The notes under the pieces: model-generated
Seen by the model: the letters and a program-made list of their open reading frames with translations, nothing else
What the model was told of the DNA's origin: nothing
The model's database searches: none
In this document: in pieces, positions 8,958 to 57,337 of the stretch
How the letters are laid out: the number at the start of each line of letters is the position of its first letter
Position numbering within the stretch: the first letter of the stretch is position 1
Virus record (IMG/VR): IMGVR_UViG_3300023184_000108
From: an uncultured virus (IMG/VR IMGVR_UViG_3300023184_000108)
Lineage: Duplodnaviria; Heunggongvirae; Uroviricota; Caudoviricetes
Reading direction: 5' to 3' (one strand)
Length of the DNA: 64,000 nt
Position numbers and translations under genes: made by a program

Positions 8958-11900
8958 ATGGCTTTTGATGTAGAAGGCGCACGAAATGCTGGGTACTCAG
9001 ACTCAGAAATAAACGACTATCTTGCGAAGAGTCTTAAATTTGACGTGGGCGGGGCGCGTAAAGCTGGGTATGACGATTCTGAAATTCTTAAACATCTAGT
9101 ATCTAAACAAAAACCAAAAGAACCAGAAGCCCCGCCAGTACAAACTGGCCCAACCGTTCTGCCGGACTCTGATACCTCAAGTAATCTTGTGCGGGGCGTA
9201 ACAAACTACCTGCCTCAATTGCAAGAGATGGGTGGCGCGGCTGAAGCATTATTTGGTGTGGGCTTGAGCAAACTTGGCGCAAAGGAAACTGGCAAGTCGC
9301 TCACAGAAAGCGGTCTCAAGACTATGGAGTCTGGGCAAGCTAAACAAGTGGTTAGAGAATCTGATTCATTTACCAAGGCATGGGAAAAAGGTATTGGCAC
9401 GGTTATTACTGATTGGCTGCCATATCAGGTTGGTGCTGGCGCTGCCAACATAGCCGAGACATTGGGCTTCATGGGTATTGGTGCGCTTGCTGGTACATTG
9501 GTTGAACCCGGCGGCGGTACAGCAGCAGGTGCAGTGGGCGGTGCTTTATCCAAGGCCTTGATTAAAAAAGGTGTCAAAGAAGCCGCTGAAGAAGTACTGA
9601 AGAAAGAAGGTAAGGAAGCTGCTGAAAAGTTTGTTGAAGCTGAAGCCAAGAAAGCCGTAAAAGAGTTTGGCGTTAAAGCAGGTATGGCTGGACAAGCTGG
9701 TTTCCACGGCGTAGCTGAAGTTGGAGGCCGAGCGCTTGATGAAGAACAACAACGTGCCAAAACTGAAGGCCGTGAGTTCAACCCAGAAAATATTAATATG
9801 GCACGGGTGGCTCCAGCCGTACTGGTGCATGGTGTAGCAGACTACTTCTTTAATAAAATTGGCATTGAGTCAATGAAGATTGGTGAAGAGGCTACTAAGT
9901 CTTTGGCGTTAGATATTGCCAAACGAATCGCAGTTACTGGTGCAAAAGAAATTCCCGCTGAAGAACTTCAGACCCTAGCTGAACGTTACGGTGCTGGCTT
10001 GTCTCTAACTGATAAAGAAGCGCTTACTGAATATATTGACACAGCAGCGGCATCTGTTGGTATGTCTGTATTGCCCGGTGCAGTGGGTGGCGCACGTACC
10101 AATTTTGAAGGTGCGCAGAAACGTGCGTTAGATAAGCTGACTGAAGAAGTCAAAAAGAAAACACAAGAAAAGACTGAAGATATTAAGCAAGTTGAGCAGG
10201 CTGCTCCACCTGCCACAAGAGATCTGACTATTACAGAAGACGGGCAGGTAACAACACCTGAGGCAACATCACAAGAAGTTTTAGTTAAATTAGAAAAATT
10301 AAAAAAAGCTCGTGATCGAGCCGAAAAAACCTTTAATAAAATTCAAAGTATAGGTAGTCCTGAATACGAAGCTGCAAAACAAAAATTTGAAACCGCAAAT
10401 ACTAAATTTAAAACTGCTTTAGATGAAGAAGTGGCAAAGGACAAAGCAAAGTTTCCAGCCTTATTTCAAACTGAAGGAGCGCCAAATGTTAATGAGCCTA
10501 TCTCAGACACAAGTGGAACAAGCACTACTGTGGCTAACAAACCCAGTGCTGACGTCTCCACCGGAAGAACTACTGCAACTAAATCAAGCGGAGTGGTTGA
10601 TACTGGAACACTTGCTACAAACGCTGGTGCGGGAACGAGAACACAACCAGCTACATTAGCGGCAGCAACGCCGGGGCAAATAGCCAATCTGTATCAAGAA
10701 ACAACTCCATTAACCACCACTACTGAAGAAACAAAGCCATACAGCGAATGGAATCATCCAAAGAAAATAGAAAAGCAAGCGCCTGTATATACAAAAGCTG
10801 AGTTTCCTGATGTATTCCCCGGCTACAAATATGACCCAACAAAATCTGAGACTGAAAATACTCGGGCTGCAATGGAGTTGCAAACTGAGAACGAGCGAGC
10901 ACAAGAAAAGCAGCGCCAACAACTGCTTACTGACGTACGTGTAGAAGCACTAAAAAAACAACAAGAAGCAGATAAACGCGCTGCTGAAGGTAAGCGCCCA
11001 GAGATTGTTGAGTTTAAAGTTACCCCTGCCAAACAAGCAGAATATGAACGTACGCGCCAAAAACTTGCACAAGAAAAAATAGTCATACCTGCATGGGGAG
11101 AGTTATCTCAACTACAAAAGAAAATTTATTTTGATTTTGTCAAGGCTACTACTTACAGTGGCACAGAAGCAGCTGAACGCGAACATAATATTGCTGGACA
11201 TGAGTTAGCTAAATTCATGGACTCAGTTGGTCGTGGTAAAGGTTATAACCAAGAGCAGACAACAGAAGCAGAACAAAATATATCTTTTATATATAACAGA
11301 AGTCGCACTGAGTACAACAAAAAATATGGAGTGAGTTTTCCTGAGTGGAGTACTTTATCTGCTGAAGCCAAAAAAATATATAACGACAGAATTGGAAGCA
11401 ACACTCCTGTTGAACAAGACTTAGCGGCGGCGTACCTCGGGTTGCATTTAGCTGAAGTTGGTGGCAAGTTAAACGCCGCCCAGCGCCAGAAGGCTGAAGC
11501 CAATATAGCTGAGTTAAAGCGTCGTGCGCAGAAGACTGAAGAAGAAACAAAGCTTGAGGGCTTTACCGCTGGCTTTGAAAACCCAGCCCCAAAAATGACG
11601 GGGGAGCAAGAAGTAAAACTTGATGAGCGGTTTAATAAAATTGTTGCCGAACAAGAGAAGCGGAAAGCGTTGCCAGCAGAAGTACTGAAACATATCAGGG
11701 ACGGTAACTTACAAGGTGTGCTTCAATACCTACGTACAAAAGCAAGAACTGCGTTTCATAAGCAGCTTGCTCAAAAAATGTTTGCGCTGAAGCTTGGCGC
11801 AAAGATAGAACTTGTTGCGTCGCTGCCCAATAATGATTTGGCAGTCTATGATCCTGATCGCAATGTGATCCAAGTTACTCCCGAAGGCTTGTCCGATATG

Positions 11901-14900
11901 GTCATGCTCCATGAGGTTGTACATGCTGCTACTATAAAAATTTTGCACGCGTTTGAGACCAATCCTAAAAGTCTGACGGATGAGCAGCGCGATGCTGTTG
12001 ACCATATTAAAGACATCATGGAGATCGCCAAGAAAGAACTTGGTAGTGATTACCCAGAAGCATTTAAGAATATCTATGAGTTTGTCAGCTATGCAATGAC
12101 GGACAAGTTGTTCCAAAACGAATTGTCAAGACTTAGCACCAAGGATTTAGTGTCTACTCTACTACCAGACAACAAGTCTATGTGGTCTGAGTTTGTTACA
12201 AGCCTGAGCAAATTGTTTGACTTCTTCAAAAACTTCTTTACCAAAGAAGGCGATGTTAAGTCTGAGAACTTGTTGCCTGAAATATTTGCGGCATTTGAGG
12301 CCATCGTAGCCGTGCCAGAAGGCGGCATCAAGATTGCTCCATTACCAAGCGCGATGCAAGTCAAAGGCGCAAAAGTAGCTAAGGAATTGCCAGAGGTAGT
12401 AACAAGTCTAGACGATAGAACATCTGATAACAATGCGCTGTATAAACTGAAGTCAGATCAAAAACCAAATACAGCGTTCAAAAAGCTAGTGCAGTCAGTA
12501 TCCACAACTGCTGGTTGGCAAAACTTGGCGCGGGTGTTTCAGAGCGAGAGTTACCCTGTACGGGTAATTGAGCAGCAACTTGCCAAGGCCAAACTTCTTT
12601 TCCGAACAGGTAAAGATGTGATAAATAACCTGCATGAGCAGATCACCTTGTCAGCTTCTCTGGCTAGGAACTACCACAACAGATACCTCAAGCAACATAT
12701 TGACGAGCTGAACTCTGCGGTGGCGGGTTATGCACAGGCTGCTGGCATTACATCTGAAGAAGCGTTGATTGACTTGCACAAAGTTCTTGAAGCCTTGCAT
12801 GAGCCTGAGCGTCGCTTGGTTAAATACATCCTCAGTGTGCCTCTGGAGAACACAAAAGCTACCTTGGCTTTCAATGGCAAAATGTATACGGCTGCCGATT
12901 TACGTGCTGAGATAAGGAATATGCTTAACTCACCCACTACAACTGAAGCTGAAGCACGCATACTCCGGGCGCAGTTAGACAACATCATCTTCCAAAAAGA
13001 TTCCAACGGAAACATTGTCTACAAAGACGGTGCGCCTCAACCTAATCTGAAGTATGTTGATCCTGCTGGGTTCAGTCCTTCTGGCACAAAAGTAATAGAT
13101 ATAAATGATCTTCACTTTAAAGTAACGGCGCTTGACCAAACTTCTGTTAATAAAATTACTGAGCAATACAACAACCATAAAAATAAAGCCGAGATGGATC
13201 GCGTGCGCACCGCTGTGCAAGCCGTGCATGAGGCTACAAAAGAACTAAACAAGATTGGTAACTACTGGTCAGTGCCGGTCAGCAACCGTGTGGCGTTCTA
13301 TGGTTGGAAAGATTACATTCCGTTGAAGGGCCTTGCCAATCAAACCAAGATTGATGAAGAGCTTGACTTTGATAGTCGCTCAATGGGGCGTGAGATGCAG
13401 GATAACCCCGGCTCAATGGATGGTCGCTTCAGCGTATCCAGAAACCCAATCCTCCAAACCATGTCTGATGGTGTGCGTTCTGCGTTGCGTGCTGGTAGGC
13501 GTGACCTGACCCAGACCGTTAAGAATCTATTACCTAAGAGCAAGCTCAACCCCAACGGGCAAGGGCATCTACATGGCAAGGTAGCCAAGCATATTAGTTT
13601 TGAAGAACGTGACTCTGTTGACTTGAGTGAATACAAAGGCGAGACAACCATCTTCCATTACAACGATGATGGCAGCATTGATATTCTTGTAGTCGCAGAT
13701 CCAAAAATGCGTAATGCGATTCGCCGTAGTTACAAGCGTGTCAATCCATTGATCGAGTTAGCAAATAAGATTACTGGTGGGTTCGGTATGCTCCACACCC
13801 GCTACAACTATCAGTTCGCCCCGCTTAACTTTGTGCGTGACGCATTGACCAACGCCTTTACGATTGGCGCAGAAATGGGGCCAAGAGAAGCCGCTAGATT
13901 CTTAACTGCTGTGGCAACACAAGTCAGTGTAAACAATGGTTTGTATAAGGCCATGCAAGTGGCTGCGTTGTACAACAAGGGCGACGAGAAGAGCATACAA
14001 ACTTTGGAAGCCCTCAAGAAGCGTGACCCATATACAAGTGACATGATTGAGATGATTGAACAGGGTGGATTGGTTTCATACCTGCACGGTCTTGGCTTGA
14101 AGTCCAACTTCATAGAACTTCACAAGTCGATTGGTAAAAGCGGCATCATCACTAAAGTAGAAGACTTGAACAAGTTTGTGGACACATGGACAGATATGTT
14201 TGAGATTGCAAGTCGTGGCGCTGCCTACGGTATTGTTAAGCAGAATTTCTATACAAAAAACCTTGCGCAAAACATGAGCGAGGCTGACGCAATGAAGTCT
14301 GCCCAAGTGCAGGCTGCTGCATATACAAAAAACCTTGCCAACTTTGAACAGGTTGGTGAGTTTGGTAAAGCAATGGGTGCGTTCTATATGTTCTTCCGCC
14401 CATCTGCAACAGGTGCTGTGCGTGCGCTTGAGTCATTGGCTCCCGCTTGGCCCGGATCATTGGAACGAGCTGTACTCAACTTGCCTAATAGCATCAGAGA
14501 TAACACAAAAGCTCTTGAAGAATTTAAACAAGAATATGCAACACTACAAACAAATGCCCGTGTAATGACTTCAGCGTTGTTTGGTTTAGGTATGTTGGCG
14601 TACGGCATGGCGTACATGACTGCGGATGACGATGAACTTGGTCGCAACTCTGTTGCTACAGACAACATGGATCAGTGGACTCGCTATGCGCGTTTCCATA
14701 TACCCCGCAAGATTACTCAAGCTATGGGCATCAAAGACCCTGTAATTTTCCAAATACCTTGGGGCTTCGGTATGGGTGCATTTGCAGCGGCGGGTGCGCA
14801 GGTTGCGGCTATGACATCCGGGAATGCTTCCGTGAAGCAATCGTTGGCTAATATATTCACATCCATTTCCTTAGACTCATTTGTGCCAATCCCAATCTCC

Positions 14901-15611
14901 AAGATGCCTGCCACAGAAATGCCGCTGGAGTTCCTGCTGGATTCAATCGCGCCAAGCGTTGCACGCCCCATGCTTGAGTTTGCTCTTAATAAGAATGGTA
15001 TGGGTCAGGCAATCTATAACGACCAGAACCGTAGGATGGGCGATGCCTACACTGGCGGCGATAAAGTACCTGAGTTGTATAAAGATGTATCCCGCTGGTT
15101 TGCCCAATCAACTACAGGGGATGTGGACATCAGCCCCAACACGTTGTATTTCTTATCTAATAGCTATGCTGATGGTGTGGGCAGGGTACTGGAGACTGCA
15201 TATGGAATGCCTGACATTGTCCAAGGCCAGAAAAACTTTAATCCCAAGACAGATCTTCCATTAATGGGTTCGTTCTTTGGGGCGCAGTCAAACGTTGATT
15301 CCCGTGAGTTCACCGCAGTCGAAAACAAAATTAAGGATATGGAACGCAAGATCAATATGTTTGATAAAGCTGATCCTATGACTTCAATAAAGTACGACAT
15401 GAAACATCCGTTTGACCGAATGTTAGTTGATTCTTACAACAAACAATTAAACTCTCAACTCAACCCATTACGAGCGCAAGCCAAACAAATTCGTTTGATG
15501 CAGATGTCACCAAGTGCGCGAGATAGTATGTTGAAGATTGTTAACTTCCAAGAGAACCTTGTTAAGCGCAATATGATTGAACAGTTCAAAGCGTTTGGAG
15601 TTACGCCCTAA
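8958..15611 (+). CDS. Large polyvalent virion protein (zincin-like metallopeptidase motif; LPD38-like C-terminus)
   Basis: 2217 aa; LHEVVHAAT (HExxH) with downstream EFVSYA; C-terminal NFVRD / FYMFF / FQIPWGFG / E.ALNKNGMG..IY pattern. Confidence 0.7.
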   Translation: MAFDVEGARNAGYSDSEINDYLAKSLKFDVGGARKAGYDDSEILKHLVSKQKPKEPEAPPVQTGPTVLPDSDTSSNLVRGVTNYLPQLQEMGGAAEALFGVGLSKLGAKETGKSLTESGLKTMESGQAKQVVRESDSFTKAWEKGIGTVITDWLPYQVGAGAANIAETLGFMGIGALAGTLVEPGGGTAAGAVGGALSKALIKKGVKEAAEEVLKKEGKEAAEKFVEAEAKKAVKEFGVKAGMAGQAGFHGVAEVGGRALDEEQQRAKTEGREFNPENINMARVAPAVLVHGVADYFFNKIGIESMKIGEEATKSLALDIAKRIAVTGAKEIPAEELQTLAERYGAGLSLTDKEALTEYIDTAAASVGMSVLPGAVGGARTNFEGAQKRALDKLTEEVKKKTQEKTEDIKQVEQAAPPATRDLTITEDGQVTTPEATSQEVLVKLEKLKKARDRAEKTFNKIQSIGSPEYEAAKQKFETANTKFKTALDEEVAKDKAKFPALFQTEGAPNVNEPISDTSGTSTTVANKPSADVSTGRTTATKSSGVVDTGTLATNAGAGTRTQPATLAAATPGQIANLYQETTPLTTTTEETKPYSEWNHPKKIEKQAPVYTKAEFPDVFPGYKYDPTKSETENTRAAMELQTENERAQEKQRQQLLTDVRVEALKKQQEADKRAAEGKRPEIVEFKVTPAKQAEYERTRQKLAQEKIVIPAWGELSQLQKKIYFDFVKATTYSGTEAAEREHNIAGHELAKFMDSVGRGKGYNQEQTTEAEQNISFIYNRSRTEYNKKYGVSFPEWSTLSAEAKKIYNDRIGSNTPVEQDLAAAYLGLHLAEVGGKLNAAQRQKAEANIAELKRRAQKTEEETKLEGFTAGFENPAPKMTGEQEVKLDERFNKIVAEQEKRKALPAEVLKHIRDGNLQGVLQYLRTKARTAFHKQLAQKMFALKLGAKIELVASLPNNDLAVYDPDRNVIQVTPEGLSDMVMLHEVVHAATIKILHAFETNPKSLTDEQRDAVDHIKDIMEIAKKELGSDYPEAFKNIYEFVSYAMTDKLFQNELSRLSTKDLVSTLLPDNKSMWSEFVTSLSKLFDFFKNFFTKEGDVKSENLLPEIFAAFEAIVAVPEGGIKIAPLPSAMQVKGAKVAKELPEVVTSLDDRTSDNNALYKLKSDQKPNTAFKKLVQSVSTTAGWQNLARVFQSESYPVRVIEQQLAKAKLLFRTGKDVINNLHEQITLSASLARNYHNRYLKQHIDELNSAVAGYAQAAGITSEEALIDLHKVLEALHEPERRLVKYILSVPLENTKATLAFNGKMYTAADLRAEIRNMLNSPTTTEAEARILRAQLDNIIFQKDSNGNIVYKDGAPQPNLKYVDPAGFSPSGTKVIDINDLHFKVTALDQTSVNKITEQYNNHKNKAEMDRVRTAVQAVHEATKELNKIGNYWSVPVSNRVAFYGWKDYIPLKGLANQTKIDEELDFDSRSMGREMQDNPGSMDGRFSVSRNPILQTMSDGVRSALRAGRRDLTQTVKNLLPKSKLNPNGQGHLHGKVAKHISFEERDSVDLSEYKGETTIFHYNDDGSIDILVVADPKMRNAIRRSYKRVNPLIELANKITGGFGMLHTRYNYQFAPLNFVRDALTNAFTIGAEMGPREAARFLTAVATQVSVNNGLYKAMQVAALYNKGDEKSIQTLEALKKRDPYTSDMIEMIEQGGLVSYLHGLGLKSNFIELHKSIGKSGIITKVEDLNKFVDTWTDMFEIASRGAAYGIVKQNFYTKNLAQNMSEADAMKSAQVQAAAYTKNLANFEQVGEFGKAMGAFYMFFRPSATGAVRALESLAPAWPGSLERAVLNLPNSIRDNTKALEEFKQEYATLQTNARVMTSALFGLGMLAYGMAYMTADDDELGRNSVATDNMDQWTRYARFHIPRKITQAMGIKDPVIFQIPWGFGMGAFAAAGAQVAAMTSGNASVKQSLANIFTSISLDSFVPIPISKMPATEMPLEFLLDSIAPSVARPMLEFALNKNGMGQAIYNDQNRRMGDAYTGGDKVPELYKDVSRWFAQSTTGDVDISPNTLYFLSNSYADGVGRVLETAYGMPDIVQGQKNFNPKTDLPLMGSFFGAQSNVDSREFTAVENKIKDMERKINMFDKADPMTSIKYDMKHPFDRMLVDSYNKQLNSQLNPLRAQAKQIRLMQMSPSARDSMLKIVNFQENLVKRNMIEQFKAFGVTP
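10486..10659 (+). CDS. Candidate overprinted 57-aa gene nested in a different frame within the large polyvalent protein
   Basis: AAGGAG at 10474-10479, 6 nt before ATG; helical Leu/Glu/Gln-rich product; the host frame is a low-complexity T/S/A/G linker over this interval. Confidence 0.5.
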   Translation: MLMSLSQTQVEQALLWLTNPVLTSPPEELLQLNQAEWLILEHLLQTLVREREHNQLH

Positions 15612-29833: not shown

Positions 29834-30095
29834 TCTCCTTTGTTGTTTCAGTTTCAGTAAGCCATGACACCCACTCAGTGTCATCAAGCCACGTCAACAC
29901 ATCCCGCCACAGTTGCGGGTTCTGTGTGTTGGTTGATAGTTTCTCTACACAATACAGATAAGCACTGTCCCCATAATCTTCTAACAGTTCTTGTGCTATC
30001 TGCTTGGACATCCGATGTTTGCTTTTTTCTGTCAAGCCATGCCTCCCATAAGTAGATTCAGCGAATTGAATCCCGAACAGCTTAATCATCGCCAA
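29814..30095 (-). CDS. Hypothetical protein
   Basis: Coupled ORF; start uncertain. Confidence 0.5.
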   Translation of the reverse strand: MAMIKLFGIQFAESTYGRHGLTEKSKHRMSKQIAQELLEDYGDSAYLYCVEKLSTNTQNPQLWRDVLTWLDDTEWVSWLTETETTKENEDDWV

Positions 30096-31359
30096 ACTTC
30101 ACCATCTTGCCGACAGGCGGCTCAAACGATTTGCACTGTGTCACCATCCACAGAGTTGGGCTAAGAATGTTCCATGTGATGTCGCTCTCAACATAGCCAT
30201 CAGTGAAAACAATGACACACTCCGCAGTGATACGCTGTTTATTGATGTACTCGTTGACGCATGACACATGAGTACCACCACCGCCTTGTGGCTTGAGCAG
30301 TCCTGCAATGTTTGCATAGTCACCCTCGAACACTTGCTCACCATGCACATCCGTATCCCACCACAAAACACGCACCTTGTCAGGCGAACACATTTCGCAA
30401 ATAGAGACCAGTTCCGTAGCAAACTCGGTTATCTCTCGGCCACCAATAGAACCCGATGTGTCAATAGCGATAACCACCTCACCGATCGTCTCGTTCTCCA
30501 TGCTTGGCAAGTAGATGTCATTGACCATGTGACGCTTGTTCAACTTACGCCATGTGAATTCATCCTTGCCCTTGATGGCACTCGCTACAAAATCTCTCAG
30601 CGCATCACGCCAATCAATCTTGGGTTCAAGTAAGTCAGAGATAGATCGTGGGACTTTTGCACCCATACGACCCGCCAACATCCCACCCTCACGCAACGCT
30701 TTGTCGATTGCATCGTTGATCTCTTTGGCTTGCTCATGCGTAAGATCTTTCAGGTTACCAAGATCGTGTTCATCTGAGTCAGAAAGATCATAGGTCTTGC
30801 CGTTGACAGTGACAGTGTTGTCGTCGCTATCTTGTCCCTCACCATCGGGTGAGCCCTTACCTTTCTTGTTACCGCCACCACCGCCACCGCCACCGCCACC
30901 TTTGCAATGCTTCTTCAGATAGTTGTATACCTCACGCATAGACCAATTCTCAAACATGGGGTCATACACACCGCCATCAGGTAAGTCCACGATACGTTCG
31001 GACGAACCATTGACTGTGCCTTTAATGCCCATGATGATGCCGTTCACCACAAAGTCAGCGGCAAGGTTTGCCATCTTGCTGTTCTCATCAAACATATCCT
31101 TACCTCTTGGCAACTGCTTCAATGCCACATGAAGATTCTCATGCAACACCAAGCCACGAACCTTGGGCTCGGTGTCAACCCTCTCCAAGAACTTGCGACC
31201 ATAGACCTTGTTCACGCCATCGGTGTATGCCGTAGGACATCCTTCATCCACGACTGTGCTTTTGCCCATCAACATCACGCCAGAATACAGCGCAGTCTCG
31301 GGGTGTTTCATCAGCGCAATGTGCGCTTTCTTTACTCGGGTTTCCTGTTTATCTTTCAT
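30082..31359 (-). CDS. Metallopeptidase plus VWA-like domain protein (DUF2201-like)
   Basis: TAYTDG, LHENLH (HExxH), Gly-rich linker, IDTSGS MIDAS, GGGGT, FTDG. Confidence 0.85.
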   Translation of the reverse strand: MKDKQETRVKKAHIALMKHPETALYSGVMLMGKSTVVDEGCPTAYTDGVNKVYGRKFLERVDTEPKVRGLVLHENLHVALKQLPRGKDMFDENSKMANLAADFVVNGIIMGIKGTVNGSSERIVDLPDGGVYDPMFENWSMREVYNYLKKHCKGGGGGGGGGGNKKGKGSPDGEGQDSDDNTVTVNGKTYDLSDSDEHDLGNLKDLTHEQAKEINDAIDKALREGGMLAGRMGAKVPRSISDLLEPKIDWRDALRDFVASAIKGKDEFTWRKLNKRHMVNDIYLPSMENETIGEVVIAIDTSGSIGGREITEFATELVSICEMCSPDKVRVLWWDTDVHGEQVFEGDYANIAGLLKPQGGGGTHVSCVNEYINKQRITAECVIVFTDGYVESDITWNILSPTLWMVTQCKSFEPPVGKMVKFGDD

Positions 31360-31442
31360 CCCACTCTCCAATAAAAAACATCTAACACAACAACGACCAT
31401 TGCTACAACGTAGACAATAGCCAACCATTTAGTTTCGCTCAT
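31356..31442 (-). CDS. Small single-TM peptide (28 aa, not in ORF track)
   Basis: MSETKWLAIVYVVAMVVVVLDVFYWRVG; ATGA overlaps at both ends. Confidence 0.55.
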   Translation of the reverse strand: MSETKWLAIVYVVAMVVVVLDVFYWRVG

Positions 31443-49060: not shown

Positions 49061-49069
49061 TTGAGTAAC

Positions 49070-49091
49070 GGGGGCTTCGGCCCCCTTCTTT
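49070..49091 (+). terminator. Intrinsic terminator
   Basis: GGGGGC-TTCG-GCCCCC-TTCTTT. Confidence 0.8.
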
Positions 49092-54337: not shown

Positions 54338-54595
54338 ATGTCACAACTTAATCTCACCCCCGAAGAAGACCAAATGCTGTTGGCTGCTCTGCGTACGCAC
54401 GCTGCTCAATATCAAGCTATGTTTGGATCCTCTGAGACAACAATGTTGGCTTTGATTGCCAAGGTTGAAGGCCAATTGTTACAGCCTGTTCCAGCCGATA
54501 TTATTGAGCCAACAGACGAAGAAGTGGAAGCCCATTTTGCTGCTGTAGAGGCTGCTACTACTAAAACCAAAAAAACCAAGGTAGTTGAAGAGTAA
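54338..54595 (+). CDS. Hypothetical protein
   Basis: SD AAGGA; coupled to the next gene. Confidence 0.55.
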   Translation: MSQLNLTPEEDQMLLAALRTHAAQYQAMFGSSETTMLALIAKVEGQLLQPVPADIIEPTDEEVEAHFAAVEAATTKTKKTKVVEE

Positions 54596-55518
54596 TGGCA
54601 TACACGTCCTCTACCGCTACGTTTAATCTTGACCTCAATGAACTTATTGAGGAAGCGTATGAGCGGGCGGGTTTAGAGGTTCGTACTGGCTATGAGTTTC
54701 GTACGGCACGGCGTTCGTTAAATTTGCTCACTATTGAGTGGTCAAACCGTGGCATCAACTTATGGACAGTAGAAGAAGGCGCGATTGCTCTTGCTACGGG
54801 GCAGGCGGTATATCCCATTCCAGAAGATACGATTGACTTGCTTGACCATGTCATCCGTCAAAACAATGGCACAGCAGCCACACAGACGGACATCAACATT
54901 TCTCGTATCTCAGAGCCTACCTATTCCACCATCCCCAACAAGCTCACTACTGGTCGTCCGATCCAAGTATGGGTCAACCGCCAAACTGCACAGACAAATG
55001 CAACATCTGTTACGTTGAATGGCACAATCACCAGTACAGCTACAACAATCGTAGTCAGTAGCGCATCAGGGTTAACCACTACAGGGTTTATTAAAATTGG
55101 CTCTGAGACCATTGGGTATACCAACGTGGATGGCAACAGCCTGATAAATTGCACCCGTGGACAGAATGGAACGACAGCAGCGGCACACACAACCGGCGCG
55201 GCAATCTATGTCCAGAACTTACCTTGTATCAATGTCTGGCCTACTCCCAACTCTGGCGGAGACTACACGTTTGTGTACTGGAGACTGCGTCGTCTCCAAG
55301 ATGCCGGTAATGGTGTAAATGTTCAAGATATACCTTTCCGTTTGATCCCTTGCATGGTGGCTGGCTTGGCGTTTTACATCGGGTCTAAGCGCCCTGATGT
55401 TTCGCCAGATCGTGTGGCGTTTTTAAAAGCTGAGTACGAACAACAATGGTTGCTGGCATCTCAAGAAGATCGAGAAAAAGCCCCAGACCGGTTCGTACCA
55501 AGGCAGTTGTTCTATTGA
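54595..55518 (+). CDS. Putative head-tail adaptor / tail tubular A-like protein with inserted beta domain
   Basis: IEEAYERAG, TARRSLNLL..EWSNRGINLWT, IPNK..GRP.Q, VWPTP, P.RLIPCMVAGLA. Confidence 0.65.
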   Translation: MAYTSSTATFNLDLNELIEEAYERAGLEVRTGYEFRTARRSLNLLTIEWSNRGINLWTVEEGAIALATGQAVYPIPEDTIDLLDHVIRQNNGTAATQTDINISRISEPTYSTIPNKLTTGRPIQVWVNRQTAQTNATSVTLNGTITSTATTIVVSSASGLTTTGFIKIGSETIGYTNVDGNSLINCTRGQNGTTAAAHTTGAAIYVQNLPCINVWPTPNSGGDYTFVYWRLRRLQDAGNGVNVQDIPFRLIPCMVAGLAFYIGSKRPDVSPDRVAFLKAEYEQQWLLASQEDREKAPDRFVPRQLFY

Positions 55519-56127: not shown

Positions 56128-56411
56128 TGGCTAAGTTCAGCATGAAGCAAGGCGGCAAAGAAGTTGGTAACGCTGACATTTATGCCAAGCCTCACACCAT
56201 GAGTGGTGGCGAAGCGAAGTCGCAAAACGATGGTAGCTTTCGCCCTGACCCAAATACATTGGCTGCGGATAAAACCGTACCGGGCGGCAGCATACCTGCT
56301 CGACGTGTTTCACTTGGCGATCGTATTCGTGAGCCTAAGACAACTGGCATCAAAACTCGCGGTAATGGCGCGGCAACCAAAGGCGTAATGTCTAGAGGCC
56401 CGATGGCATGA
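56127..56411 (+). CDS. Small basic protein
   Basis: C-terminal KTTGIKTRG.GAATKG.MSRGPMA. Confidence 0.65.
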   Translation: MAKFSMKQGGKEVGNADIYAKPHTMSGGEAKSQNDGSFRPDPNTLAADKTVPGGSIPARRVSLGDRIREPKTTGIKTRGNGAATKGVMSRGPMA

Positions 56412-57337
56412 ACTACATCCAGCTTGTAACTGCGATTCAGGATTACACAGAGAATAGCTTTAACTATTCCACCGATCCTACGCCTATCAATACTTTTATT
56501 GAGCAGGCTGAGCAACGCATTTACAACACGATTCAGTTCCCATCTATACGCAAAAATGTCACAGGAACCACAACGTCCGGCAACAAGTACCTCTCTTGCC
56601 CAGATGATTTTCTCGCTGTGTATTCACTTGCTGTTGTTGATGCAACTGGCGCTTATGAGTATTTGCTGAACAAAGATGTGAACTTCATACGTCAGGCATA
56701 CCCAACTCCAACAGATACGGCAATTCCAAAATACTATGCGTTGTTTGGCCCATCGGTCAATGGAACAACAGTTTCAAATGAGTTGTCATTTATCCTTGGC
56801 CCGACCCCCGATGCTGGATACAGTGTTGAATTGCATTATTACTACTACCCAGATTCAATCGTGCAGGGTAAGCTTTCTTCTGTTGGCAGTATTGTGGTTG
56901 GCACTGGGTACGTAGATGGTACGTACTACAACGTCCCGCTGACTGGTGGGGATGGTAAGAATGCAACAGCCACTGTCGTTGTTTATGGCGGGTCAGTAAC
57001 AACTGTAACCATTGTAGATGGCGGTTCTTCTTATTACGTGGGCAACACCATAAGCGCAGCAAATACAAATCTTGGCGGTACAGGATCAGGATTCTCCGCA
57101 TCTGTCACGGCAGTTATAAATGCAGCAGGTCAGACATGGCTGGGCGATAACTTTGACACTGTTCTGTTGTACGGATCAATTATTGAGGCTTACACCTACA
57201 TGAAAGGTGAGCCAGACATTATGCTTGGGTACGATGCCAAATACAAAGAAGCACTTGCGTTGGCAAAACGTTTGGGTGATGGTATGGAGCGTCAAGATGC
57301 CTACCGGTCTGGACAGTACAGACAGGCGGTGACGTAA
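56408..57337 (+). CDS. Putative phage adaptor (head-tail connector) protein with inserted domain
   Basis: MNY..L..AIQDYTEN..FIEQAEQRI, P.YYA, GPTPD..Y.VELHY, TWLGDN..LLYG. Confidence 0.65.
   Translation: MNYIQLVTAIQDYTENSFNYSTDPTPINTFIEQAEQRIYNTIQFPSIRKNVTGTTTSGNKYLSCPDDFLAVYSLAVVDATGAYEYLLNKDVNFIRQAYPTPTDTAIPKYYALFGPSVNGTTVSNELSFILGPTPDAGYSVELHYYYYPDSIVQGKLSSVGSIVVGTGYVDGTYYNVPLTGGDGKNATATVVVYGGSVTTVTIVDGGSSYYVGNTISAANTNLGGTGSGFSASVTAVINAAGQTWLGDNFDTVLLYGSIIEAYTYMKGEPDIMLGYDAKYKEALALAKRLGDGMERQDAYRSGQYRQAVT

Follow-up and report, generated by a model that had tools for sequence, protein, structure and literature searches.

A probable protein-coding gene nested in the +1 frame of a giant virion-protein gene in a lineage of uncultured phages

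The giant gene and the open frame inside it

The stretch of 64,000 nucleotides analyzed here (hereafter, the window) belongs to the genome of an uncultured podophage (IMG/VR record IMGVR_UViG_3300023184_000108). This genome is double-stranded DNA (dsDNA) of at least 64 kb. Its plus strand carries a giant gene for a protein of 2217 amino acid residues and, wholly inside it but in the +1 frame, a 57-codon open reading frame (ORF) at positions 10486 to 10659, which, judging from the sequence comparisons described below, is very probably a real, separately initiated protein-coding gene. The features of the locus are the following:

8958..15611, plus strand: the host gene, encoding the 2217-residue large polyvalent-type virion protein with an LPD38 domain, downstream of genes that match virion-structural and tail families of PHROGs
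10423..10485, plus strand: upstream in-frame extension of the nested frame to an alternative ATG (78-residue version), outside the conserved gene; its open length varies among loci
10473..10808, plus strand: the disordered main-frame linker (protein residues ~506 to 617) that carries the nested gene, delineated in an AlphaFold2 model, with a main-frame ratio of nonsynonymous to synonymous differences per site (pN/pS) of ~1.8
10474..10479, plus strand: Shine-Dalgarno sequence AAGGAG, 6 nucleotides before the nested ATG; GGAG or GAGG is kept in relatives
10486..10659, plus strand: the nested (+1 frame) gene, with a predicted acidic 6.7-kDa product of three predicted helices; homologous ORFs are intact and vary in the manner of a frame under selection
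11910..11924, plus strand: HEVVH (HExxH) metallopeptidase-like motif of the host protein, residues 985 to 989
14661..15206, plus strand: LPD38 domain of the host protein, a Pfam match

The genes upstream of the host gene match PHROG families of virion-structural and tail proteins, and residues 1902 to 2083 of its product match the Pfam family LPD38 with a score of 59.5 bits against a cutoff of 27; this is the only LPD domain that Pfam detects in the protein. Giant size, an LPD domain, and a position among virion genes are the features by which large polyvalent proteins are recognized, and the host gene shows all three. By analogy with gp47 of phage phi24B (see below), its product is probably packaged and ejected. 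The preliminary description of this DNA had mentioned an HExxH metallopeptidase in the giant protein, and the motif is indeed there, as HEVVH at residues 985 to 989. The alignment of 53 unique complete host genes shows a peptidase-like motif in every one of them, as HExxH in 46 and as HExxxH in the other 7; the latter (L029, L034, L062, L068, L070, L075, and L077) also differ in the type of the surrounding sequence. A comparison with 50,697 deposited phage genomes found nothing closely related to the host gene, and the matches to its protein are distant, C-terminal ones from Vibrio and Pasteurella phages.

The nested ORF is preceded by AAGGAG (10474 to 10479), with a spacer of 6 nucleotides before the ATG at 10486, and runs for 57 codons up to the TAG at 10657 to 10659, giving a translation of 57 residues. 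The Shine-Dalgarno sequence, the spacer, the out-of-frame ATG, and the 57-residue ORF are all in the sequence as the preliminary description had them, and so is the nesting, since the ORF lies within the ORF from 8958 to 15611 that encodes the 2217-residue polyvalent protein. The same combination of AAGGAG and a 6-nucleotide spacer precedes the late genes of the window that start at 8958 (the giant gene itself), 43754, and 45216. Upstream of the nested ATG, the +1 frame stays open for 21 more codons, up to the ATG at 10423. Taken on its own, the window yields a nested ORF that is within chance: in the +1 frame of the giant gene there are six stretches of 50 or more codons without a stop, one of which reaches the maximum of 129 codons, and the locus also includes an antisense ORF (10466 to 10687). 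What places the nested ORF beyond chance is the comparison with its relatives and not the window sequence alone.

Over the nested ORF, the main frame reads PNVNEPISDTSGTSTTVANKPSADVSTGRTTATKSSGVVDTGTLATNAGAGTRTQPATL and is rich in Thr, Ser, Ala, and Gly, which agrees with the low-complexity linker that had been noticed earlier. In an AlphaFold2 model of host residues 400 to 720, model residues 107 to 218 have predicted local distance difference test (pLDDT) scores below 50 and almost no secondary structure, with confident helices on either side, so this part of the main frame appears to be a disordered hinge.

Conservation among relatives and selection in the nested frame

In the related IMG/VR contig L001, the giant gene is 76% identical to that of the window overall, and the N-terminal ~650 residues are only ~20 to 30% identical, save for one island. 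This island begins at the Shine-Dalgarno sequence and ends at the stop codon of the +1 frame, and within it the +1-frame peptide is 84% identical and the main-frame peptide 61% identical. The comparison with L002 likewise gives 84% identity in the +1 frame and 61% in the main frame, and the comparison with L010 gives 46% and 23%, respectively.

Searching viral contigs with the peptide, and then with the peptide alignment, resulted in 80 loci, or 81 with the window included; one more match, L011, was dropped as false, being a 34-codon frame that is not nested (E value of 3e-4). The ORF is intact at 56 to 58 residues in 80 of the 81 loci, with the remaining one cut by the contig end, and in all 81 it is nested in an ORF of 653 to 2812 codons (some of them cut by contig ends), whose main-frame phase is one base upstream. 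Four further loci, which include members that are only ~30% identical, are likewise nested and intact (4 of 4). One of these is on a contig of a metagenome-assembled genome (MAG) and three are on viral contigs that were reached via two very divergent members (~30% identical) from a search of a protein library. An independent scan of metagenome contigs found 80 loci, and in 54 of these the ORF sequence was one that the other loci had not supplied. A complete ORF of 55 to 59 residues, across which the main frame is open, is present in 79 of the 80; the contig end cuts the remaining one. No free-standing copy of the nested gene was found among the total of 165 loci. Contigs of bacterial and archaeal genomes gave a single match, a MAG contig, in which the copy is also nested.

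A profile search of 1.84 billion protein cluster representatives (clustered at 50% identity) retrieved 190 of them at E values of 1e-3 or less, including 51 at 1e-10 or less. Most of these 190 representatives are 47 to 110 residues long, and the match extends to their C-terminal end; those database copies that bear any name are called “hypothetical protein.” The nested protein is absent from most annotations because gene callers disallow one gene lying wholly inside another.

The peptide is far better conserved than its surroundings. Its median pairwise distance is 0.46, compared with 0.77 to 0.85 for each region of the host protein. The fast alignment used for these very divergent giant proteins may understate their identity. 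The nested gene can thus be described as the best conserved coding element of the locus, kept across a large and diverse lineage of uncultured phages. The host protein itself is a mosaic, in which the C-terminal region occurs in several types among the relatives and the N-terminal ~500 to 600 residues (8958 to 10470 in the window) are modular and are swapped between relatives. For example, L003 and L004 encode identical nested peptides but have unrelated N termini, and L003 and L006, with a common N terminus, have different peptides. Recombination between the modules of the host protein may take place at the conserved nested gene, which would serve as their joint. The best-conserved parts of the C-terminal core of that protein (residues 1786 to 1967, ~14313 to 14858 in the window) include Gly/Ala-rich hydrophobic stretches, such as those at residues 1786 to 1825, 1854 to 1893, and 1928 to 1967. 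From their sequence, these stretches look like membrane-inserting segments, which would fit a role of the core as an ejection conduit.

The signals at both ends of the nested gene are also retained. A start codon is found at the aligned position in 85 of the 85 loci (ATG in 80 and GTG in 5). GGAG or GAGG is located 5′ of this start in 80 of them, compared with 185 of 3,427 control out-of-frame ATGs in the same genes (5.4%), and the spacer is exactly 6 nucleotides long in 68 loci. At the other end, the stop codons vary (TAA in 53 loci, TAG in 23, and TGA in 8) but occupy the same aligned position. In 13 of 81 loci, a stop codon of the nested frame lies either directly before the ATG (9 loci) or one codon before it (4 loci), and upstream of the conserved start the frame stays open for anything between 0 and 64 codons, depending on the locus. 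Such upstream stops and the varying length of the open stretch point to independent initiation and not to a frameshift fusion. Thus, the comparison of homologs that had been proposed in the preliminary description comes out in favor of a gene: the Shine-Dalgarno sequence, the ATG, the open +1 frame, and the pattern of Trp and Leu residues are all kept, and the main-frame residues diverge.

The substitutions are distributed as expected for a coding +1 frame. At nested codon positions 1, 2, and 3, the window differs from L002 by 7, 8, and 20 substitutions and from L010 by 24, 18, and 36 substitutions, respectively, so they concentrate at the nested third position, which is the first position of the main-frame codons. 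For 66 unique ORF sequences, the entropy at the three nested positions is 0.92, 0.61, and 1.20 bits, respectively, and the amino acid entropy of the nested frame (1.27) is lower than that of the main frame (1.96). The median pN/pS by the Nei-Gojobori method over 2,145 pairs is 0.44 for the nested frame and 1.83 for the main frame, with the caveat that overlaps between genes bias this estimate. That the main-frame value exceeds 1 is due to the suppression of “synonymous” change and not to positive selection. On these comparisons, the amino acid sequence of the nested gene appears to be under purifying selection.

When the 53 aligned unique complete host genes are divided into blocks of 30 codons, the third main-frame position is the most variable one (1.38 to 1.87 bits) in every block except 511 to 540 and 541 to 570, in which it is the least variable one (0.70 and 0.68 bits, respectively). 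The synonymous constraint that the preliminary description had proposed to measure is therefore present, and over the nested gene only. Stop codons in the +1 frame show the same confinement, being absent from block 511 to 540 and numbering 17 to 106 in each of the other blocks; the 52 stops in block 541 to 570 are the conserved stop codon itself. Because the inverted signature is confined to the blocks of the nested gene, the other long +1-frame runs in the window can be ascribed to chance. The longest alternative-frame ORF of the giant gene, a 127-residue one at 14881 to 15264 (plus strand, +1 frame), was considered separately as a possible gene and rejected as a product of chance, as it has no inverted codon-position signal and its relatives are not short of stop codons.

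Among the six frames of the 66 unique sequences, the nested and the main frames are open in 66 of 66, the third sense frame in just 1, and the antisense frames in 1, 46, and 36. Randomizing the synonymous codons of an unchanged peptide leaves the main frame open in a median of 3.5% of the cases (range, 0 to 10%); doing the same for an unchanged main-frame protein leaves the nested frame open in a median of 12.7%. With the main frame observed to be open in 66 of 66 sequences versus the expected ~3.5%, reading through the giant protein appears to be selected in its own right, even though its residues in this region are not. Across the nested gene, the main frame thus amounts to a predicted disordered hinge in which residues can change freely, the sole requirement being that it stay open. 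The idea that the second frame carries the constraint and the main frame serves as a linker, put forward from the window sequence, is thus strongly supported by the relatives.

With regard to the origin of the arrangement, the codon usage values of both frames are ~0.61, compared with 0.76 in ordinary sequence segments, and the value of the nested frame is the higher one in 28 of 53 loci; the gene may have arisen by overprinting in the linker or may have started as a free gene that became bridged when its neighbors fused. On the short metagenome contig L135 (positions 1 to 2474), the giant ORF is split over four frames and the nested ORF is intact. This break is probably a matter of a poor contig or sequencing error; less probably, the host gene is decaying there and the nested gene survives.

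The predicted product and its likely role

Fourteen residues (M1, L2, L5, Q9, E11, A13, P26, L29, L32, E36, W37, L40, L44, and E50) are invariant in the 60 unique peptides. With the peptide alignment as input, AlphaFold2 predicts helices at residues 7 to 18, 27 to 31, and 34 to 54, with a mean pLDDT of 77.7. The helix-loop-helix suggested earlier was roughly right, with three predicted helices. The family is acidic, with a median isoelectric point of 4.64 and a net charge of −2 to −8. Cysteine is found in just 9 of the 60 members, and the maximal 19-residue Kyte-Doolittle mean has a median of 0.40 and a highest value of 0.72, as compared to ~1.6 for a membrane helix; given this highest value, the peptide has no membrane segment.

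Searches with the peptide against Pfam, PHROGs, and NCBIfam gave no usable family match, and neither did the ESM Atlas. The best of the PDB sequences was PcrV, with an E value of 0.31. Foldseek searches with the peptide model against PDB and BFVD returned nothing at E values of 0.001 or less, and the best Z score in the wide VIA-align search was 5.4, with mixed helical matches inside the stated noise range of that tool. PADLOC produced no significant match, its weak local matches to PDC-M16B being limited to 9 of the 60 members (best E value, 0.005), and no Rfam family matches the region of the nested gene. The PHROG family phrog_5825, which is weakly matched by 19 of the 60 members (best E value, 0.0016), was rejected as the family of this peptide, as the match covers only ~28 of the 208 positions of the model.

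Ribosomes can be expected to load at the internal site of the late structural mRNA and to start there independently, in which case an acidic three-helix protein of 6.7 kDa would be made together with the giant protein, at the same time and place. The gene is found throughout the lineage, its conservation far exceeds that of any part of the host protein, and it is locked in the late structural operon, so it does not look like a dispensable accessory gene. A role as a core accessory factor of virion assembly or ejection, such as a small partner of the chaperone type for the giant internal protein or for some other conserved part of the virion core, is favored here over the other roles considered below, as a possibility that falls short of being probable.

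Several points weigh against the gene as described here or against the proposed role. There are 5 of the 85 loci in which neither GGAG nor GAGG is found, and the RNA around the start folds just a little less strongly than other regions (mean z score of 0.46), which is partly due to a lower GC content. All the relatives come from uncultured metagenome and viral contigs, and the counts of loci given above are not counts of independent events, as these sequences share their phylogeny; to this should be added the bias of the pN/pS estimate mentioned above. The structural model of the peptide is moderately confident. As for the role, all that suggests it is the conservation and the position of the gene, with no family, fold, or context match from any of the above searches to back it. 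Finally, nested phage genes, such as E, B, and K of phiX174, often have functions that are unrelated to those of their host genes.

The evidence for a separate gene has to be weighed against two other explanations of the open frame. The +1 frame might be reached by programmed frameshifting, resulting in a truncated N-terminal product with an alternative tail of 57 residues. Sequences resembling Shine-Dalgarno sites can stimulate frameshifting, as in dnaX and prfB; the +1 frame of the window has those 21 open codons upstream of the ATG; and one database protein, P0114, passes from the main-frame sequence into the second half of the peptide. However, P0114 (266 residues) is a single sequence, which is explained more simply by an indel in one contig; the frame change in that contig lies inside the nested gene and could be either an assembly indel or a natural variant. 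Further, the +1-frame stops at most one codon before the ATG in 13 of 81 loci, the start codon in all 85, the spacing of 6 nucleotides that is typical of initiation in 68, and the onset of conservation at the Shine-Dalgarno sequence rather than upstream of it all argue against frameshifting, so a programmed-frameshift product of the lambda G/GT or T7 10A/10B type was rejected and this explanation is considered highly improbable. Alternatively, there could be no second gene at all, and the island could represent a main-frame motif, the antisense ORF, or a cis-acting DNA or RNA element, with the open +1 frame as its by-product. The six long +1-frame runs in the giant gene of the window and the presence of the antisense ORF at 10466 to 10687 would be in line with this. 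Nevertheless, the three-base periodicity of variability is phased to the +1 frame and only at the nested gene, the main-frame amino acids diverge faster than the +1-frame ones, and the start, the Shine-Dalgarno sequence, and the position of the stop are kept despite the use of three different stop codons. The antisense frames are open in just 1, 46, and 36 of the 66 sequences, and an antisense ORF cannot explain the pattern because its wobble falls on the least variable position; an RNA element is disfavored by the lack of any Rfam match. The absence of a second gene is therefore close to refuted.

If the nested gene is real, its product could still do something other than assist the virion. 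It might be directed at the host cell, acting in take-over or anti-defense, for example, as an acidic mimic or binder, and using the spare coding space of a tolerant linker. The product is predicted to be small, acidic, and soluble (median isoelectric point of 4.64), as are many phage inhibitors directed at the host. Overprinted viral genes are reported to commonly encode accessory proteins (PMC3494269, PMC8227390). In addition, the peptide distances correlate only weakly with those of the host-protein regions (Spearman coefficients of 0.16 to 0.42), a correlation that is saturated as well as weak, and the PDC-M16B matches in PADLOC offer at best a faint lead. On the other side, this gene is universal and much better conserved than its surroundings, whereas counter-defense genes are typically patchy and fast-evolving; a take-over factor expressed from a late structural operon would be badly timed, unless it is carried in the virion; and nothing significant was found in PADLOC, Pfam, or PHROGs. 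A host-directed function thus seems rather unlikely, without being far-fetched. The peptide could also be a cis-encoded keeper of its own host protein that binds the nascent giant protein and keeps it inactive and competent for packaging until ejection. It would then be made from the hinge of the giant mRNA, and its target would be either the peptidase or the hydrophobic, membrane-inserting C-terminal core. This version is regarded as doubtful. A complex prediction for the peptide with host-protein residues 1420 to 2100, run without controls, gave a score of 0.00 and no verdict, and thus speaks neither for nor against such binding. Less probable again is the suggestion made in the preliminary description that the peptide is a cis-encoded inhibitor or antitoxin, here of the HExxH metallopeptidase of the giant protein, acting until packaging or ejection. 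The motif is found in 53 of 53 unique complete host genes with the peptide (46 with HExxH and 7 with HExxxH), the invariant polar residues Q9, E11, E36, and E50 could contact a metal site or a basic groove, and such peptidase domains have been proposed to process polyvalent proteins (Iyer et al. 2017, PMC5512222). However, the co-occurrence of the peptide with the motif is forced by the nesting and cannot tell one role from another, and no result obtained here favors the chaperone, inhibitor, or antitoxin function that the preliminary description had suggested. Furthermore, the family, sequence, and fold searches revealed no similarity to a known peptidase inhibitor or antitoxin, and cultured Vibrio phages have distant C-terminal homologs of the giant protein without the peptide.

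Precedents, phage context, and other observations

Small same-strand genes that lie wholly inside a larger gene in the +1 frame, with start signals of their own and both products made, are known from embedded spanin pairs such as Rz/Rz1 of lambda. In that pair, Rz1 has a signal peptide and a lipobox Cys and is secreted as a lipoprotein, and the gene around it encodes its partner in lysis. Similarly to Rz1, the nested gene described here is a same-strand, +1-frame gene with its own start signals in a tailed dsDNA phage. In contrast to Rz1, its predicted product is acidic and helical, with no hydrophobic segment, and it resides in a virion/ejection gene and not in a lysis cassette. An embedded, Rz1-like o-spanin was therefore rejected (Cys in 9 of 60 members, maximal hydropathy of 0.72, and a host gene for an LPD38 virion protein). 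A single-gene lysis protein of the phiX174 E or MS2 L type was rejected as well, as there is no transmembrane or strongly hydrophobic segment, the highest hydropathy being the same 0.72.

In phiX174 and other Microviridae, gene E is overprinted in D, and B and K are overprinted in A, in tiny single-stranded DNA genomes that are under strong size pressure. The nested gene shares with these genes the out-of-frame dual coding and the reduced variation at synonymous sites of the host frame, as also described in the overprinting literature (PMC8227390, PMC3494269). It differs from the phiX174 genes in being found in a dsDNA genome of at least 64 kb, in which the nested frame is the dominant and ordered one and the host frame is an unconstrained disordered linker.

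The location of the host gene among virion genes is similar to that of other large polyvalent proteins of phages (PMC5512222), including gp47 of phi24B. This 2811-residue protein, which combines the LPD5, LPD1, and LPD38 domains with a peptidase, is reported to have been detected in virions by proteomics and has been proposed to be an ejection protein (10.64898/2026.04.10.717836). The main text of Iyer et al. 2017 (PMC5512222) does not use the word “overlapping” and describes no nested gene under that term. In the open-access and bioRxiv literature that was searched, no description was found of a gene nested in a gene for a polyvalent or ejection protein. Thus, the arrangement as such is known, and what appears to be new is the protein family and the class of host gene, with the nested frame as the dominant one.

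The locus would provide a clean natural example of a nested frame that dominates, with the host frame reduced to an open disordered hinge, and it suggests that core genes can lie concealed in what look like “junk” linkers of giant phage proteins. The inverted codon-position signature could serve as a simple screen that is applicable to all giant phage genes. Should the product of the nested gene control how the giant virion protein is assembled, processed, or ejected, it would offer a new handle on the delivery of huge proteins by podophages.

Elsewhere, the window encodes a terminase, a capsid protein, SU10-type adaptors, a family A DNA polymerase, an SNF2 helicase, and a DUF927 primase-helicase. 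The capsid protein is 64 to 69% identical to those of Planktothrix phage Pag-Yong1, Synechococcus phage MinM2, and Pelagibacter phage HTVC023P. A tblastn search with the peptide against 50,697 phage records gave no match. A profile search of Pag-Yong1, HTVC023P, and Vibrio phage 1.205.O did not find the peptide either, and the positive controls L003 and L013 were matched. The giant protein was not found in Pag-Yong1 or HTVC023P; Vibrio phage 1.205.O has a distant C-terminal homolog of it.

Two neighboring plus-strand genes of the window, at 54595 to 55518 and 56408 to 57337, both match the SU10 adaptor family (E values of 8e-7 and 1e-18, respectively) and may represent a duplicated adaptor. 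A minus-strand gene at 30082 to 31428, in the replication/early region, encodes a DUF2201 putative metallopeptidase with a VWA-like domain. Finally, a GC-rich hairpin at ~49065 to 49089 (gggggcttcggccccc), followed by a run of T's, is located directly upstream of an ORF of 950 residues that is listed as starting from the TTG at 49090; this hairpin looks like a terminator, so that the true start of that ORF may be further downstream.

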